Below, piece after piece: positions 6,433-51,054 of a stretch of 64,000 bases of DNA. This DNA comes from Justusliebigvirus alia. A program made the position numbers and the translations under genes. The stretch lies in sequence record OZ035799.1; one strand, written 5' to 3'. A model generated the notes under the pieces. It was not told where the DNA came from, did no database searches, and saw nothing but the letters and a program-made list of their open reading frames with translations. Each line of letters starts with the position of its first letter. Positions within the stretch are counted from its first letter, which is position 1.

Positions 6433-7380
6433 TTAGAAACAGTGCAGGAAGTTTCGACCATACTGCAAACCAATAGGAGCAAATGGGATATCATCATCGA
6501 AATCTTGAACAACAGGTTCTGGTTCTTTCGGTGCTGGCTCTTTCTTCTCTACTTTTTTAGTTTCTTTCTTAACTTCTTGTACTGGGGTAGACATTCCACG
6601 GATAGCAGCAGCTACTTTATCAGACAAAGCAAGAACTTCACGAGCAGCTTCAATAATCTCTTCTGCCGTTACAGTTTTACCTGTATGATCACGACAAGCG
6701 TTAAGAATTGCGTGTCCAACTGAAGCACCAAGATCATAGTCAGTCACATCAACGCCACGATCTTTAGCAATTTCTGCTTTCAGAGTAACAGTTGCAGATT
6801 GTACCACACCAGCCAAGTCGAAAGCATCACCTTTCACACCAGCACGTAGAAGCTCCAGAGCGCCGTTTACAGCGTGTCCTGTTTCAATCCCTACGGTATC
6901 ACGTTTTTTGTAGTTAGGCTTGCTACCTTCGTTATTAGATGGCTTGTTTCCACCTTTTGAAGAAGATTGTGCTTGCTGAACACCTTCTGTTGAAAGAATA
7001 GTGATTTTACCTTTAGAGGAATTGTAGTATGTTTTGCCATTCCATTCAGAAGGTTTAACATCCATAGTTAGTTCTACACCTTTTTCGATAGTAACCCACT
7101 TGTCACCATCTTTAACTTGCAGGTTTTCATGTTCTGGATGCAGTTTAACTTCACCTAGGCTAACCCAAACACCTTTATCATCAGCACTAGCACCTTTCTC
7201 TTTAATAAGCAGAGATGCTTTGTGAGTTGATTCAATTTTCTTATCTGGCTGACCTGCAACCTTAATATAAGAGACTTTCATTTCATCAAACTTATCCAGT
7301 TTGACATATTCAACGATACCTTCAGCCCAGAATGCTTCTTTTTTAGTACGACGGTCAATTTCAGAATTAATTACTGGCAT
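6433..7380 (-). CDS. putative ssDNA-binding protein with SSB-type acidic DFDDDIPF motif
   Basis: 315 aa; GAGGAG RBS; DFDDDIPF identical to E. coli SSB C-terminal tip but followed by 15 more residues. Confidence 0.5.
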   Translation of the reverse strand: MPVINSEIDRRTKKEAFWAEGIVEYVKLDKFDEMKVSYIKVAGQPDKKIESTHKASLLIKEKGASADDKGVWVSLGEVKLHPEHENLQVKDGDKWVTIEKGVELTMDVKPSEWNGKTYYNSSKGKITILSTEGVQQAQSSSKGGNKPSNNEGSKPNYKKRDTVGIETGHAVNGALELLRAGVKGDAFDLAGVVQSATVTLKAEIAKDRGVDVTDYDLGASVGHAILNACRDHTGKTVTAEEIIEAAREVLALSDKVAAAIRGMSTPVQEVKKETKKVEKKEPAPKEPEPVVQDFDDDIPFAPIGLQYGRNFLHCF

Positions 7381-9064: not shown

Positions 9065-11644
9065 TCAGTGACAACTGGCCCATGAGTTACCAACATCGTA
9101 ACCAGCAGTGAGAGGTACATTAAGATTGTAATACTCACCAGCTTTATTAACAGCGATAGATGCTAATTCTCCAGCACGACTGTAGGCTGTAAACCAACCA
9201 CCTTTTGGAGATTCATGTACGTTAGCCCAAATCTTGCCAGTACGTTTCTCTTCCTCTTCTTTCCAAGCATTAACTTTATCCAAACATTCTTTATCAATTT
9301 TCTTTTGTTCTTCTGGATCATCAACTTGAGTCCAACCTAAAGATTCTTTAGAGAACCATTTAAAATGCACCAGATCACGAGTTACTTCAAGCTGTGCTTC
9401 ATCGTGATATGCAATCATTTGTTGAACGAATGACTTATTTTTCCAGTCATCAACAAAAAAGTCAACAGCTAATCCTTCTTCTTCGATAAGATCGTCGTAG
9501 ATAACCATTGCTCTTTTTGCACAAATAACACCACCACTCTGGAACAGAGAGTTAAGTATTGCGTGTGCAGATCGTGTAGGTACTTTTCTACCATCAATAC
9601 CAAGAATGTATTTCTTACCTGTTTTAACCCAAAAATCATGCAGACGTTCTTTAAGAAGCGCAAGAGGTTTTGCAGCTTCCCAGAAAGCATCGTATACAAG
9701 CTGTCCTGTATACATATCACTACCTATAGTTTTTGCTACTTTTGCAGCTTGAGCACCATAAGTAATACCATACTTAACAGATTTAGCAGGGCTTCGTTCA
9801 AACTTACGACCAATAGTGTCAGAAATACGTCGAGCCATCATTGTATGAACATCATTAGGTTTTTCCAACAATAGAGCATTACAATATTCGTGTGGTTCCT
9901 GCTCGTACCGCCAACAGTAGTGGGATTCTATTTTTGCCTCAAGAGAATCAAAGTCATAACCAATTTGGAAGTATTTTGGAACTTCTACACCAAATAAGTT
10001 ACGCATTTCATATCCGTACAGAGATGTTACACGTGGGATATTTGCTACTAACCTATGTTTCATACGAGATGTAGCCGCATCACACGTTGCAGCAGGAGTT
10101 GGTATACGACCATCAGCCCTTACTGCTGCCAGATAACCCTTATCGTAATCCTCTTCATCTTCTTCCCAATCAGCACCACCTCCTAGAATAGAGTTCCTAC
10201 GGTGTTTATACGTAAGATACTGCACAATCTGCGTAGCATAAGGAAACTTTTCACCCAGTGCTTCCAAGTTAGGACAAATATCTTTCTCTTGCCCTTTTGT
10301 AAAGGAAGGGTTAGTAAGCACTTTAACACCACGACCTTTAGCTTTAGCAATACGATCTCTTAGTTTCCATTCCAAAGTTTCTGGTGTGCACTCCAGATGA
10401 TCACATCTGTCCTGGCAGAAGTTAGATGCTAACGTTTGATCAACATAGTCACGAATAGCTTTCTCCATCTGTGCTTCATCTTTCTTAATCTTAGTGCCAG
10501 ATTTAAGAGTGATATCTTTATCTTTATATTCAGATGGACTCCAACCTAAACCAACTAACCAGTTTTTAATATGTGTAGTGTCGTCTAAAGTAGCAGGTAC
10601 TGTAGGATCACAAATAGGTTCTTCTGCTGGAATAGGGAGTTTAAACTCTTTACCTAATGCAAATAACCACCAACCATCTTCTTTTTGTACAAGTTCACCA
10701 GAATGTTTCTCTGCAAACTTTATCATGTTACTTGAAGGTTCACCATTCTTTTTAAACTGTAGTTTAGGTGGAATGAATGATTTCAAATAACCTTTAGTAG
10801 CAGGTTTAGGAGGTAGCACAGGTTCTGCCTCTAAACGACATGCTTCCATTCGAGCATCCAGATCACGAATATTATCTTCTGCTTGTTTCATATTGAAAGC
10901 AAAGCCACGGTGCTCTTGACGTGTAATAATATCCGCTACACGTTGTTCTAAGTTAAATGGTTCAGACCACTTATTATAATCACCCCACTCTTCCATCAAA
11001 TAACGGAACACTGCGGTGTTAGCTTTGTTATCGTAAATACAGTAATACAGCATATCTGCTGCAAATGTTTTAAATCTTTCAGTTTCAGGAATGTTTTTTC
11101 TAAAATCAATTTTAACATCCCCTCCAGCTTTTTTAGATAACTCTGCCAGACTATGACCACCGAAGCGATCAGGGTTTAGTGTCTTACTTAAGATCATAGT
11201 ATCACAAATTTCAATGTTACTATTACCCCAAGTATTGTACTTAATACTGTAGTTGAGTTTAAAAAATAATTTAATTGCCAGTAAGTCGAAGTTAATGATG
11301 TTGTGTCCAACTACTTTGGTAATTTTATAGTTTGAATTACCTTTAAATTTACCTGTTCCGTTTACAAAATCAGGAAAATCTTTAAGAGGGAAATGGGTAT
11401 ATTCTAAATGCTCATATTCCTCCAGTCGGTATTCATACTTTCCGTCAGTCTCAATATACGGACGACCATCGAAAAGATATTTATCACCATCATGGAAAGC
11501 AATAATCTCTCCAGTATCATGACTTTCGCACACAATACAGTGCATTGCAAAACTATCTTTTAAACGATATGGACTTGCCAAGTAATCTACACTTTCGTCA
11601 TTAAGCAAGTTGTTACTTTCAATGTCGAAAGTAAAAGCTCCCAT
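9065..11644 (-). CDS. DNA polymerase, family A, with 3-prime-5-prime exonuclease domain
   Basis: 859 aa; N-terminal FDIE exonuclease motif; strong AAGGAGGGAG RBS. Confidence 0.9.
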   Translation of the reverse strand: MGAFTFDIESNNLLNDESVDYLASPYRLKDSFAMHCIVCESHDTGEIIAFHDGDKYLFDGRPYIETDGKYEYRLEEYEHLEYTHFPLKDFPDFVNGTGKFKGNSNYKITKVVGHNIINFDLLAIKLFFKLNYSIKYNTWGNSNIEICDTMILSKTLNPDRFGGHSLAELSKKAGGDVKIDFRKNIPETERFKTFAADMLYYCIYDNKANTAVFRYLMEEWGDYNKWSEPFNLEQRVADIITRQEHRGFAFNMKQAEDNIRDLDARMEACRLEAEPVLPPKPATKGYLKSFIPPKLQFKKNGEPSSNMIKFAEKHSGELVQKEDGWWLFALGKEFKLPIPAEEPICDPTVPATLDDTTHIKNWLVGLGWSPSEYKDKDITLKSGTKIKKDEAQMEKAIRDYVDQTLASNFCQDRCDHLECTPETLEWKLRDRIAKAKGRGVKVLTNPSFTKGQEKDICPNLEALGEKFPYATQIVQYLTYKHRRNSILGGGADWEEDEEDYDKGYLAAVRADGRIPTPAATCDAATSRMKHRLVANIPRVTSLYGYEMRNLFGVEVPKYFQIGYDFDSLEAKIESHYCWRYEQEPHEYCNALLLEKPNDVHTMMARRISDTIGRKFERSPAKSVKYGITYGAQAAKVAKTIGSDMYTGQLVYDAFWEAAKPLALLKERLHDFWVKTGKKYILGIDGRKVPTRSAHAILNSLFQSGGVICAKRAMVIYDDLIEEEGLAVDFFVDDWKNKSFVQQMIAYHDEAQLEVTRDLVHFKWFSKESLGWTQVDDPEEQKKIDKECLDKVNAWKEEEEKRTGKIWANVHESPKGGWFTAYSRAGELASIAVNKAGEYYNLNVPLTAGYDVGNSWASCH

Positions 11645-30729: not shown

Positions 30730-31009
30730 CATTATGTTCAAAGTGGCTCGCAAGGCCACTCCCGCACCATTACGTGCTGCTGCATGTCACCATGCAGATC
30801 AGACTATATCTTCATGCTTAAAGCATGTCTACCATTTGGGGTGTCATAGGCTTACACCCTACGCTGCTACATTCATCACAGCTAGTCGTTAGGCATTTCG
30901 TAATAGTACCCCCCTTCTTCTGTGTTGGGAGTTCTGTTACGTTTAGCACGGGATTGTCTCGTTGAGAGTTCCCCCGTTTAGGCAGATTTTACATGAGCAG
31001 TTATAGTTT
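30730..31009 (-). ncRNA. group I self-splicing intron (ORF-less) in nrdD
   Basis: 280-nt non-coding insert; exon 1 ends in U, intron ends in G; core CUAAACGGGGGAACUCUC...GACAAUCCCGUGCUAAA resembles T4 td/nrdD intron core; P7-like GACUAG/AUAGUC. Confidence 0.7.
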
Positions 31010-31867
31010 ACCCATGCTTGTGACGCGACCATCTGAAGATCCTGTAACTTCTTTGTTTAAAGGTACAGAGATAAAATCAGGATAAATGCGTTCAGCACAA
31101 CACTCCATTGCCAGTTGCTTCAAATCATAGTTTGGATCGCCAGCTTTCATGTTAACACCATCTTCCAAGAAGAAGATAACTTTAGGAAACACAGGAGTTA
31201 CCCTATCTTTTCCTAATCCTTGTTTGTGCACCATTAGGTAGTTTTTAGTGATCATTCTACCAAAAGCAGAGGTATCCAAACCTAAACTAATTGTTATAAA
31301 AGGTGACTGACCATTTACACTCATTAGAGTGTTCACTTGGTAGATTAAAGTTTGCATTGCATCATAGACCTGTTTATCTACCATACGCATAGCAATATCA
31401 TAATCACCAACATCAGCATATATTTTATTAAAACTTGCTTTAACGTATTGACTAAGCCCAGTATCAACATGTGCACAAGTTTGTCCACCATATTGGCTAG
31501 AAGCTACTGCTTGAATAATTTGAGTTAGGACAGTAGTCGCTACACCGATAGATTTTGGTTTTTCAATATGTGCATTACCAATACGGAAACCGTTCTCAAG
31601 CATATCTTGGTAATTTACCAGGCAACAATTAGTTAAAGGTGAGAGTAAATAATCTAAATCGTGGATGTGACCATACCCACTTTTATGCCATTCTGCCAGA
31701 TCTTCCGGTAAAATATGGGTCATTGCCATGTGCTTGCTTAGGATACCTGCTAGTAAATCTCGGTGAGTATTAACAATCATTGCAGGTTTGTTTGCATTTT
31801 CACGAGTAAATTCTTCGGATGTTTGTTCGAGGAATCCGATTACATCCTCATATAGTTTTTGGGTCAT
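31010..31867 (-). CDS. nrdD: anaerobic ribonucleoside-triphosphate reductase, exon 1
   Basis: ATG after GGAGGA; track ORF runs into intron and stops after 3 extra codons. Confidence 0.8.
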
Positions 31868-47207: not shown

Positions 47208-47759
47208 ATGCGGATTACTGATAAGTATGTGTTCTTCTTTTCAGCAAAAGATGAATTTAGCAACTGGTATCTATCATCTTTTATTGAACCTTTAGCACCC
47301 AAGTATAATAATTCTATTACAAGTTCTGTTGAATTTACTTGTGTGGAACAATATATGATGTGGAGAAAAGCATGTTTGTTTTATGATTACAGTATTGCAT
47401 CTTCTATTTTAACCGGAGATCTAAGATATACAGGAGAAAAAGAACAAGCATATTATAAACGACTAGGCAGATTAGTTAAAGATTATGATGAAGATACCTG
47501 GGCTTCTTTACGGGAGAAGATTGTCAAGCGTGGTTTGTATCTTAAATACACACAAAATGAAGATCTCAAAAATAAACTTATCGCTTACGCAGATAAGGAG
47601 TTCGTAGAGGCAAGCCCTTATGATTCTATTTATGGTATCAAAATGGGGATGTGGGATCGTGACGTGGAAAATAAGGACTGTTGGAAAGGACAAAATCTTT
47701 TAGGAAAATGGCATACAGACCTTGCTGTTTATCTAAAAGCACAATCTGATATTTCCTGA
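47208..47759 (+). CDS. NADAR/YbiA-like (DUF1768) protein
   Basis: 183 aa; FSNWY and EQYMMWRKA motifs typical of NADAR family; starts at stop of upstream gene. Confidence 0.55.
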   Translation: MRITDKYVFFFSAKDEFSNWYLSSFIEPLAPKYNNSITSSVEFTCVEQYMMWRKACLFYDYSIASSILTGDLRYTGEKEQAYYKRLGRLVKDYDEDTWASLREKIVKRGLYLKYTQNEDLKNKLIAYADKEFVEASPYDSIYGIKMGMWDRDVENKDCWKGQNLLGKWHTDLAVYLKAQSDIS

Positions 47760-47974
47760 TATTTTGAAAATTTTTATTTTTATAAAAAGGGGTGTGGGTT
47801 TCATGTACGGAAATTCACCCTCTGAATAATATATCCAGAGTAAGTATTATTTTGTACTCTGTTAATAAATTATTTAATTTGTTTGTTGGAATATGTTATC
47901 TGGTTTTTAAAAGGCATACTATCTCTTAACTACTACTTATAACAGAACAGTAAAATCATTTTTATAAAAAGGAC

Positions 47975-48180
47975 AAAATTATTTAAAGTTTTTACAGATT
48001 TTTGGGTACAAATTTAGAAAATGAAAAGTTCAAGTTTGGTCAAAATTATTTAAAGTTTTTGTACGTATTTCTATCCAGATTTTGAAAATGAAAACTTCAA
48101 TTTTTTAAAAATTCCCCAGTTTATTTAAAGTTTTTTTGCCTTTTTCCGTAGAAAAATCAAAAATGAAAAGTTCAATTTCG
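47975..48180. repeat. three copies of ~55-bp direct repeat (AAAATTATTTAAAGTTTTT...GAAAATGAAAAGTTCAA)
   Basis: Both sub-motifs recur three times in same order within 200 bp of AT-rich non-coding DNA. Confidence 0.6.
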
Positions 48181-48198
48181 TGTTTTTATGGGTGTGCG

Positions 48199-48312
48199 TA
48201 TGATAATCATTTTCATTTGTAAATGAGAATCATTATCATTTAAGTATGTAAGTGATAATCATTCTCACTAAGAGAATGAGAATCATTAGCAAATGAGAAT
48301 TTTTCTCATTTA
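48199..48312. promoter_or_regulatory. cluster of five Fur-box-like palindromes
   Basis: TGATAATCATTTTC, TGAGAATCATTATC, TGATAATCATTCTC, GAGAATCATTAGC and perfect palindrome AAATGAGAA-TTT-TTCTCATTT; up to 13/14 match to GATAATGATAATCATTATC core. Confidence 0.45.
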
Positions 48313-48573
48313 GAGAATAACGCGCAGGGGTGGTGTTTGTCTCGCGCTCCCGTGTCCCCTCGCCATACAATAAGAATAGCATAACCAACAACAAAAGCAA
48401 GCGATTATTTTTATCTTTACATTTCTTTACAAATTTATTTTAGACGAGCTACCGGCGATCAACCTTCCAACCAGTAGTGCCCTGGTATGTTAGCCCCGCC
48501 TTTACGCCGTGGGGGTGGCGTTTCCTCTTCTGTATGTAAAACAGTATAAGCCCGATCCCTGGGCTTGTCAAGA

Positions 48574-48840
48574 TTATTTTTTGTTTTCTTGCCAGGATAG
48601 GACACCTAACCAAAAATACATGTCGCCCCGCGCCCCTGGCGGGATCTTGCTTTCCCCGCCGCCACTGCAAGCCCATAGATAACCATTTACGAACGTATCA
48701 AAGTGATCTATCTCTTCCACCTTATGATTGCCCAGGTTGAGAACGGTTTCAACCTTTAAGCCCGTTGCGCTTGCTACCTGGTGCACCGTGCCGCCTTGCC
48801 AGCCCAATGAGTGCATGAGATGTAAAGGAGTATTTGTCAT
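48574..48840 (-). CDS. hypothetical protein encoded in GC-rich island
   Basis: 88-aa ORF (MTNTPLHLMHSLGWQGG...) with AAAGGG RBS; surrounding ~600 bp clearly more GC-rich than rest of window. Confidence 0.3.
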   Translation of the reverse strand: MTNTPLHLMHSLGWQGGTVHQVASATGLKVETVLNLGNHKVEEIDHFDTFVNGYLWACSGGGESKIPPGARGDMYFWLGVLSWQENKK

Positions 48841-49105
48841 GGTATCGCCCTTTCTTTGATGTGCGCCCTGGTTGGCGCGGTAGAAAGATAATAGCCGTTT
48901 CCTTTATAGATAGCAAGCAAAAAAGAAATGAAAAAAGATTAAAAAAATGGTTGACGTTCCTCACCTGGTAGCGTAGTATTCATCTTGTCGAGGGGGCGAG
49001 GCACAACGACAATAAACAAAAGGAGGGCGCAATGTAGGACGGGCAAAGGTGAGGATCTCCACAATCCACCGTCACAATAACATTACTTATAAAAGGTTGA
49101 TAACG

Positions 49106-49201
49106 ATGATCAAGAAAGAAAACAGCTTGACGGTTGGAACGATTAACGCTATCATTCTTGCCGTTCCATTTTGGGTTGTAGTAGCGGTTATTATTTTTTA
49201 A
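49106..49201 (+). CDS. possible small membrane peptide (31 aa)
   Basis: ATG with weak AAGG; hydrophobic; not in track. Confidence 0.2.
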   Translation: MIKKENSLTVGTINAIILAVPFWVVVAVIIF

Positions 49202-50237: not shown

Positions 50238-50498
50238 TTGTTTTTTCTAAAAGTTTTTGATAATGTGATCGCTTTTGAACATGCTACGACGTTCGACCTG
50301 GCGAGATACGCTATCAGGTTTAAAGATAATGTTTATCCCCGTGCTGGCGGCGGTTACACTATTTTTAATCATCGTAATGCGCAACTAACAGATATAACGA
50401 ATCCAGATCCTGGAGTGTATCGCATAGGCTGGCTACCGTCAAAAGACGCTGCAAGCATGTTTAAGGTATGTAAACTACTAACAGAAGAGGCGAACTAA
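50238..50498 (+). CDS. hypothetical protein
   Basis: 86 aa; TTG start 5 nt after GGGGAGGA. Confidence 0.5.
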   Translation: MFFLKVFDNVIAFEHATTFDLARYAIRFKDNVYPRAGGGYTIFNHRNAQLTDITNPDPGVYRIGWLPSKDAASMFKVCKLLTEEAN

Positions 50499-50499
50499 C

Positions 50500-51054
50500 A
50501 TGGGGCGTGAATATGTGATCCAGTCCTGGGTAAAGCATGATGCTAATGATCCGCGCATAATACCAGATGACATGATCGATCACATGGTAGGGTATAGCGG
50601 GGAGCAGATAGGAAATCGAGCGGCAAAGAGCAACGGCAACACCAGGACGCGATCCGTTCGCCCTGGATGGCTGGCGAATGGTAACGCTGACATTGCAAGC
50701 GCCGCAGATCCAAGCGATGACGCTAAAAATAATCCCTTATACAGCATTGATCCGGCTTTTAAGGTGTTGGAAGAGTATCCCGCTAAATTAGCCGCACTAG
50801 ATAAGGCATACGAAGAAAAGCGCATGGCATGGACTGTATACAACACCGCTAAAATGGTGCTAGATGCAAAATTGATTAAAGCCCAGGAGAAGATCAATAA
50901 ACTTGTTGCAGTAGCGCAAGAGGAAGACCAGGGCGACCAGGAGGAAGAGGAAGAAATCATGCCTACCCTGGAAGAGGAAGAGATCCAGCCATACATGCCG
51001 ACGGAAGAGGAAAAAAGACAAGCCTTAAAAAATTATGAAAATTGCATTGTGTAA
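50500..51054 (+). CDS. hypothetical protein with acidic C-terminal tail
   Basis: 184-aa track ORF; C-terminus EEDQGDQEEEEE. Confidence 0.55.
   Translation: MGREYVIQSWVKHDANDPRIIPDDMIDHMVGYSGEQIGNRAAKSNGNTRTRSVRPGWLANGNADIASAADPSDDAKNNPLYSIDPAFKVLEEYPAKLAALDKAYEEKRMAWTVYNTAKMVLDAKLIKAQEKINKLVAVAQEEDQGDQEEEEEIMPTLEEEEIQPYMPTEEEKRQALKNYENCIV

Follow-up and report, generated by a model that had tools for sequence, protein, structure and literature searches.

The stretch of DNA analyzed here, hereafter the window, comprises 64,000 nucleotides of Justusliebigvirus alia (sequence record OZ035799.1), a phi92-like lytic myovirus; it matches Justusliebigvirus alia OZ035770.1 at 100% identity and phage phi92 at about 97%. 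Our subject is an island rich in guanine plus cytosine (GC) at positions 48320-49100 and, above all, RNA1 (48434-48536, leftward strand), a conserved element devoid of any open reading frame (ORF) that we regard as a candidate structured small RNA on the grounds of BLASTN conservation, a covariance model and the covariation of one of its helices, P3. The island lies in a gene-poor 1.5-kb zone flanked on the left by a rightward gene block whose last member is a NADAR-domain gene (47208-47759) and on the right by a series of rightward early genes, each with its own sigma-70-type promoter; within 48320-49100 the GenBank annotation records a single feature, the hypothetical protein alia_104 / Phi92_gp224 (below, gp224).

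The first-pass annotation of this DNA had singled the island out as visibly richer in GC than its surroundings, and the windowed composition bears this out: GC amounts to 0.470 across 48320-49100 and to 0.510 across 48440-48900, versus 0.378 for the window mean and 0.245 for the adjoining repeat region (47760-48319). The top GC peak of the window sits in the island whether the sliding scale is 200, 300, 400, 600 or 781 nt (z = 3.3-4.1), and at most 0.03% of the windows attain it. Both GC-rich runs that had been quoted are present, CGCGCAGGGGTGGTG at 48321-48335 and CCCGCGCCCCTGGCGGG at 48627-48643, the latter inside the gp224 ORF. We ascribe the richness in GC to two sources, GC-rich RNA or terminator stems and a gene whose codon composition is atypical. 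A runner-up peak of almost equal height (0.52-0.545 in 200-nt windows) occurs at about 50400-50800, within the early gene 50500-51054, whose GC content at third codon positions (GC3) is 0.50.

When the island was submitted to a sensitive BLASTN search, the segment 48414-48540 emerged as the only piece common to distant relatives, among them the phages BIS47 of Klebsiella, CR3 of Cronobacter, phiTE of Pectobacterium and SSE121 of Salmonella (all from a different subfamily), at about 84% identity and, in all of them, as unannotated DNA at the syntenic position. RNA1, whose near-invariant core spans about 48449-48521, is 80-100% identical across the Stephanstirmvirinae and Vequintavirinae, a degree of nucleotide conservation that exceeds that of the surrounding genes. 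A dedicated search retrieved it from 235 phage records (about 226 without short Aeromonas matches), one copy in each, as well as from IMG/VR and metagenome contigs that are essentially all phages of 120-155 kb; the hosts of the phages that carry it include Escherichia, Klebsiella, Salmonella, Cronobacter, Pectobacterium, Erwinia and Serratia. The covariance model, run over the loci gathered for the analysis, recognizes RNA1 at 49 of them, and one more locus was reached via the neighboring protein: a 127-kb contig retrieved through its gp224-family protein alone carries RNA1 immediately after the gene. Matches to the RNA1 pattern beyond contigs of rV5/phi92-like phages, in genome and metagenome collections, were discarded as chance matches inside GC-rich coding sequence. 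No homologues of RNA1 or of its downstream neighbor RNA2 (described below) were found in E. coli genomes, no Rfam 15 family matches within 48312-48540 at E <= 10, and a permissive Rfam search gave chance-level matches only, all of them within AT-rich palindromes.

Upstream of RNA1 stands the best-scoring sigma-70-type promoter of the region (TTGACA-17-TATACT, 48543-48571, leftward strand, 11/12 in the promoter scan), which starts 3 nt past the gp224 stop codon and faces leftward into DNA without a credible ORF. This promoter is kept in 32 of 33 distinct relatives, with a score of at least 9/12, a spacing of 17-18 nt and a fixed distance to the conserved block. Its spacer (48548-48566) is itself a GC-rich dyad, AAGCCC-AGGGATC-GGGCTT, that the scan calls terminator-like too, and the -10 box supplies the A/U-rich tail after it; among the relatives the sequence of the dyad differs while its symmetry is kept, some having GNRA loops (GCAA, GAAA). 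The dyad thus looks like the terminator of gp224 nested within the promoter of RNA1, a layout that makes a neat case of genome compaction.

The element has no start codon, and the lineages differ from one another by 1-nt and other non-triplet indels; RNA1 is consequently non-coding, and we reject a coding reading of it. Its 5' end, ACAGAAGAGG, is a perfect copy of a purine-rich motif of the type ACAGRAGAGR, which, with one mismatch allowed, occurs 42 times on the two strands of the whole window versus 11 +/- 3 expected, nearly all of them on whichever strand is coding locally, with several copies just before a start codon (e.g., 49271 and 50481). RNA1 therefore starts like an mRNA leader, yet without an ORF. 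Of the readings of the island put forward in the first-pass annotation, a structured non-coding RNA gains support and is the most interesting, with its location now placed downstream of the gp224 ORF, on the leftward strand at 48434-48536, rather than within it. A recombination or packaging site, another of those readings, received no support, although no test was aimed at it. The same annotation had dismissed the other overlapping ORFs as spurious, fairly so, since they run across promoters or the conserved non-coding element; 48449-48676 (leftward), 48509-48682 (rightward) and 48749-48964 (leftward) belong to no Pfam or PHROG family.

RNA1, RNA2 and the nested terminator are unannotated in the records inspected, most of which have nothing under the match and some of which have evidently spurious ORF calls. 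The open-access literature that was searched for these phages consists of genome descriptions and makes no mention of the element or of a transcriptome. The ORF itself was already on record as a hypothetical protein; no earlier description of the predicted RNA1, RNA2 or promoter-embedded terminator was found in this literature. Two peculiarities of individual records may be added. OY978796.1 (10176-11505) annotates tRNA-Met, tRNA-Ile and tRNA-Lys beside or overlapping the RNA1 homologue, and these annotations look misplaced because ARAGORN finds no tRNA in 10176-11505. In a few Mydovirus genomes (IMGVR_UViG_2974574029 at 7025-7129 and Raoultella/Klebsiella relatives) an ORF is inserted after the 3' end of RNA1, replacing RNA2 and the palindromes that follow it; a related record labels it an HNH endonuclease, and a mobile gene appears to have landed exactly at the junction of RNA1 and RNA2.

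Thermodynamic folding of RNA1 favors two hairpins in most sequences, P1 (CGCC/GGCG) and P3 (C-R-(U)-ACCNGG...CCNGGU-Y-G). In 47 distinct sequences aligned to the covariance model, a fit that biases the pair counts toward that model, six of the nine pairs of P3 vary in both partners: 32 sequences have A-U and 15 have G-C at pair 49-71, pair 54-67 occurs in four types (A-U, C-G, G-C and U-A) and pair 52-69 is C-G or G-C. The covariation score of P3 was attained by none of 500 shuffles, and sliding one partner by 1-3 columns lowers its pairing from 96% to 20-44%, so that P3 is a helix of RNA1 in which compensatory base pairs exceed the controls. The alternation of A-U and G-C at 49-71 also appears in a structure-blind MAFFT alignment, and it does not go back to a single inherited event, since it is present both within Mydovirus and between subfamilies. 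P1 is invariant in the 47 sequences; the 127-kb contig reached through its protein has G-C at one pair where they have C-G, a compensatory change. The remainder of RNA1 (GGCGGGGCUAAC, GGAAGGU and AUCGCCGGUAG) is almost without variation, which puts its pairing beyond the test. A putative pseudoknot between CCCC in the P1 loop and GGGG becomes CCAA/UUGG, in a shifted register, in two lineages, and its pairing is broken in two others.

These observations bear on whether the locus acts as RNA or as DNA. It is conceivable, though in our judgment unlikely, that the locus, with no functional free RNA, combines sites for protein binding with bidirectional terminators and so insulates the early region from the rightward operon that closes with the NADAR gene (47759). 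Clusters of binding sites typically show extreme sequence conservation, the palindromes left of RNA2 and the TGTAAAGA repeats between RNA1 and RNA2 resemble operators, and three terminator-like calls fall on the rightward strand at 48496-48527, where TTTCCTCTTCT comes after the complement of P1. The pyrimidine tract, however, is poor as a U-tract, and poorer still in relatives (UCUCCUCUCC); the compensatory changes of P3 are not expected in duplex binding sites; nor would such sites account for a near-consensus promoter at a fixed upstream distance in 32 of 33 relatives.

A resemblance to tRNA deserves separate mention. The strands GGGGCUA (48494-48500 region) and UAGCUC, which are identical to the acceptor stem of E. 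coli tRNA-Ala in 6/7 pairs, would pair as a copy of the acceptor stem of tRNA-Ala and transfer-messenger RNA (tmRNA), including G3:U70, and would close two hairpins, so that RNA1 might act as a decoy that engages a host tRNA-handling enzyme or a defense that targets tRNA. The acceptor-like helix is paired at 94% in the 47 sequences, and all six of its pairs have one-sided G-C/G-U changes that keep the pairing, phapecoctaviruses included, although the rest of their 3' tail differs. Nonetheless, the helix lacks double compensatory changes, is equaled by 29-49 of 500 shuffles, has a low pair probability (0.15) and faces a competing helix; RNA1 has no T-loop motif (GUUCRANYC), no D arm and no 3' CCA, and its 1:72 position is G.G; ARAGORN calls neither a tRNA nor a tmRNA in it, and 0 tRNA/tmRNA genes in the whole window; and the resemblance was spotted after the fact. 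We consider this decoy improbable. A broader version, held to be just as improbable, regards RNA1 as a family-wide phage RNA that would mimic host RNA through both its tRNA-Ala/tmRNA acceptor strands and its leader ACAGAAGAGG and would thereby capture a conserved host factor early in infection; a tRNA-processing or tRNA-charging enzyme, a tRNA-directed defense nuclease and the 30S subunit would be the candidates.

The gene that precedes RNA1 is real. The leftward ORF of 88 aa at 48574-48840 that had been proposed from the letters is confirmed, with an ATG start and AAAGGG ahead of it, and homologues, whose absence would have told against the island, are plentiful. It matches phrog_19316 end to end (3e-57); its 21 homologues, down to 40% identity, are all 86-93 aa long, and a profile made from them reaches 220 cluster representatives and 159 clusters, none of which has a Pfam domain or an informative name. 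Eleven phage alleles give pairwise ratios of nonsynonymous to synonymous substitution (dN/dS) of 0.08-0.39, with about 55% of their differences at third codon positions, and the AlphaFold model is all-alpha with a mean predicted local distance difference test score (pLDDT) of 93.8. A helix-turn-helix regulator of the Cro/XRE type finds no backing, there being neither a Pfam/NCBIfam helix-turn-helix match nor a significant match to that fold. By these sequence and model comparisons, gp224 is a member of an uncharacterized phage family, which beyond the present phage group resides within arrays of small unknown genes.

Transcription of gp224 would start from a sigma-70-type promoter of its own (TTGCTA-17-TATTAT, 48888-48916, leftward strand, 9/12 in the scan), which gp224 homologues share, with 17-nt spacing and at the same position, in 12 divergent relatives. 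The 5' leader of the mRNA carries a hairpin (GCGCC-AACCAG-GGCGC, 48863-48878, leftward strand), read from the sequence and kept in closer relatives, that is similar to those found after the rightward early promoters. The slot that gp224 occupies is variable: in relatives it holds a gene of the gp224 family, sometimes sharing the N-terminal 40 residues only, or an unrelated ORF of 55-76 aa, such as one of about 60 aa (MENGKV...VPLPFA) or another small ORF, and whichever ORF fills it ends 30-53 nt ahead of the next element. With a GC3 of 0.545 versus 0.305 +/- 0.073 in 40 long ORFs of the window (z = 3.3) and with unrelated small ORFs in the same slot of some relatives, gp224 behaves like a swappable early accessory gene, moron-like in the loose sense. 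The suggestion of a horizontally acquired moron therefore stands in part: the ORF has the promoter and terminator-like hairpin of its own, the deviant composition and the presence or absence in syntenic relatives by which morons are recognized, but it sits in the early-gene array of a lytic phage, where a classical prophage moron fits loosely.

That the laterally acquired gene should be all there is to the island, with flanks that are junk and conserved through recent common descent, is the least probable of the readings considered here. The atypical GC3 and patchy distribution of the ORF speak for it; yet phages devoid of the ORF still keep the RNA1 flank, as do subfamilies whose neighboring genes no longer align as DNA, so the flank is older than the gene and under tighter constraint.

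Leftward of RNA1 follows a second conserved element of about 55 nt, RNA2 (AUGGCGAGGGG...AGACAAACACC...CCCCUGCGCGUUAU-UCUCU, 48312-48366, leftward strand), recognized by blocks conserved in relatives, among them the invariant motifs ACAAnCACC and CUGCCCGYYAUUC. Alignment with relatives places its putative promoter, TTGCTT-16-TATTCT (TTGCAA-17-TATATT in Vequintavirinae), at 48373-48400 on the leftward strand; in alia it is a weak match to the consensus, and the scan favored a neighboring site (48432->48404). Upstream of it, a direct repeat kept in nearly all relatives (TTTGTAAAGAAATGTAAAGA, two copies of TGTAAAGA 11 nt apart, 48414-48433, leftward strand) could act as an UP-like element or as a site for a regulator. 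The basal stem joining the 5' and 3' ends of RNA2 is 88% paired, with many G-U pairs that become A.C mismatches on the opposite strand, and is followed only by UUAUUCUCU, a combination that the scan did not call a terminator; RNAalifold returned no consensus structure for RNA2, and its folding energies are ordinary. Candidate roles for RNA2 are those of a second small RNA, of a weak terminator of leftward transcripts and of a DNA site.

The end of RNA2 lies, in nearly every relative, 2-4 nt before the first of a cluster of Fur-box-like palindromes (tGAGAAT-N-ATTCTCa and GATAAT variants, 48199-48312, no strand assigned; families D2 and I1-I3 of the repeat finder). Their number and their position directly after RNA2 are kept in almost all relatives, and they are not operators specific to gp224, since phages without that gene have them as well. 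Farther left, at 47958-48180, come three iteron-like direct repeats of about 70-79 bp in DNA of 24% GC, each with AAATTATTTAAAGTTTTT and AAAATGAAAAGTTCAA.

This arrangement brings in the main rival of an RNA that acts on its own, a replication origin in which the leftward promoters would make primer or R-loop RNAs (RNA1 and RNA2) that enter the palindromes and the 24%-GC iterons of 47958-48180 as the unwinding element; we rate it as possible, at well below even odds. Two or three promoters are directed from the GC-rich block to AT-rich DNA with three direct repeats of about 70 bp and several palindromes, and all relatives keep, in synteny, the order promoter, RNA1, promoter, RNA2, palindromes. 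Furthermore, the rV5 paper was unable to place the origin from skew, and its map has an ORF-free 'non-coding' box that might correspond to the present locus. On the other hand, a primer needs neither some 75 near-invariant nucleotides nor a covarying hairpin far from the unwinding site, neither an initiator gene nor DnaA boxes were recognized at the locus, and the turning point of the GC skew of the window falls at about 43000, where it coincides with a change in gene orientation.

At the right edge of this divergent control region stands the first rightward early promoter (TTGACG-17-TAGTAT, 48951-48979, 9/12 in the scan and also seen on reading the sequence). Its leader contains a mini-ORF, ATG-TAG (49032-49037, rightward strand), 5 nt past a strong Shine-Dalgarno sequence, AAGGAGG (the feature as a whole spans 49020-49037), and downstream of the promoter there is an unannotated hydrophobic ORF of 31 aa (MIKKENSLTVGTINAIILAVPFWVVVAVIIF, 49106-49201, rightward strand); its substitutions in the phi92-like and phAPEC8-like relatives that retain it are conservative, and it probably encodes a real small membrane peptide. 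Elsewhere in the window, the sole Rfam match at gathering level is a full-length group I catalytic intron (RF00028, 72.3 bits, 30780-31055, leftward strand), which presumably splits a leftward gene.

Taking these features together, the reading that we prefer, with a probability of roughly 0.55, is that leftward sigma-70-type units make up the island in a compact array, placed between the AT-rich repeat and palindrome region and the rightward early genes, that comprises an accessory gene and an early structured RNA, RNA1. The first unit would consist of a promoter, the leader hairpin and the genuine 88-aa accessory gene; the second, of the near-consensus promoter whose spacer doubles as the gp224 terminator hairpin and which would drive an RNA1 of about 100 nt; and the third, of a further promoter and the RNA2 of about 55 nt, serving as a second small RNA, a leftward terminator or both. 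Early in infection, host RNA polymerase would transcribe RNA1, a structured RNA that would be stable and whose invariant nucleotides, in single strands and at junctions, would be read by a protein or RNA partner conserved across Enterobacterales hosts or across these phages. RNA1 would then serve as a decoy, a sponge or a regulator. That it pairs in antisense with a neighboring gene is the less favored idea, since the unpaired and junction nucleotides stay invariant across phages whose hosts range over the Enterobacterales, which points to a conserved partner that recognizes them.

Several points weigh against this array and its early RNA. The RNA1 transcript, with its ends and stability, is deduced from the DNA, and the extreme conservation would be equally expected of a cluster of DNA-binding sites or of an origin. 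Besides the bias of the pair counts mentioned above, P3 is the one helix backed by covariation, the rest of RNA1 being too invariant, and two mutually exclusive closing helices, GGCGG/UCGCC and GGGCUA/UAGCUC, are each about 95% paired. The minimum free energy of the 241-nt stretch 48300-48540 is no better than that of shuffles (z = -0.16), no canonical intrinsic terminator follows RNA1, and the basal stem of RNA2 neither exceeds shuffles nor shows compensatory pairs beyond the controls. Finally, no partner or target was found: complementarity of RNA1 to possible antisense targets in the window, counted as 10-mers, is at about the chance level.

The rV5-like and phi92-like phages (Vequintavirinae and Stephanstirmvirinae) are isolated widely and have a place in cocktails for therapy and biocontrol, and their early program consists almost entirely of hypothetical proteins. 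The depth to which RNA1 is conserved suggests a core function. If RNA1 is truly an early small RNA or decoy, it offers a concrete handle on host takeover in this phage group; if it is instead the primer of an origin, it places the origin that has so far escaped location.

Comparison with known systems sharpens these alternatives. Morons are autonomous promoter-gene-terminator units within phage genomes, and gp224 is like them in having a promoter of its own, a terminator-like hairpin, a deviant base composition and a patchy presence among relatives; unlike them, it lies in the early region of a virulent phage and not between prophage late genes, implies no function of benefit to a lysogen, and occupies a slot that is always filled by some small gene, which is more like an early-gene swap site. 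The small stable RNAs of lytic and temperate coliphages include the band C and D RNAs of T4 and the OOP RNA of lambda. RNA1 shares with these its shortness, the lack of an ORF, a candidate structure, a host-type promoter of its own and a location in an early or regulatory region; it differs in having no relation to them by sequence or Rfam family, in not being antisense to an annotated gene and in lying outside any tRNA cluster. Unlike the usual phage small RNAs, moreover, RNA1 is conserved much deeper, across two subfamilies, and is a predicted RNA. The rV5-like Pectobacterium phage phiTE has a pseudo-ToxI non-coding RNA (PMC3475682). No ToxI-like 36-nt repeat was found in or near the RNA1 locus of phiTE and no link joins the two RNAs; unlike pseudo-ToxI, RNA1 is single-copy, non-repetitive and present in all relatives rather than specific to one lineage.

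Origins primed by transcription are exemplified by oriF and oriG of T4, the primary origin of T7 and RNA II of ColE1. As in those, one or more promoters here face AT-rich repeats with a predicted structured RNA in between; unlike those, RNA1 is separated from the AT-rich repeats by a promoter, RNA2 and the palindrome cluster, and no initiator is recognized. RNAs that sequester proteins are represented by 6S RNA and CsrB/C. RNA1 has no similarity to them, its GGA motifs are not conserved (G[GUCA]AAGGU) and it forms no bubble resembling an open promoter; as a working model only, it may nevertheless be likened to them, since its invariant unpaired nucleotides, displayed on a conserved scaffold, suggest recognition by a protein.

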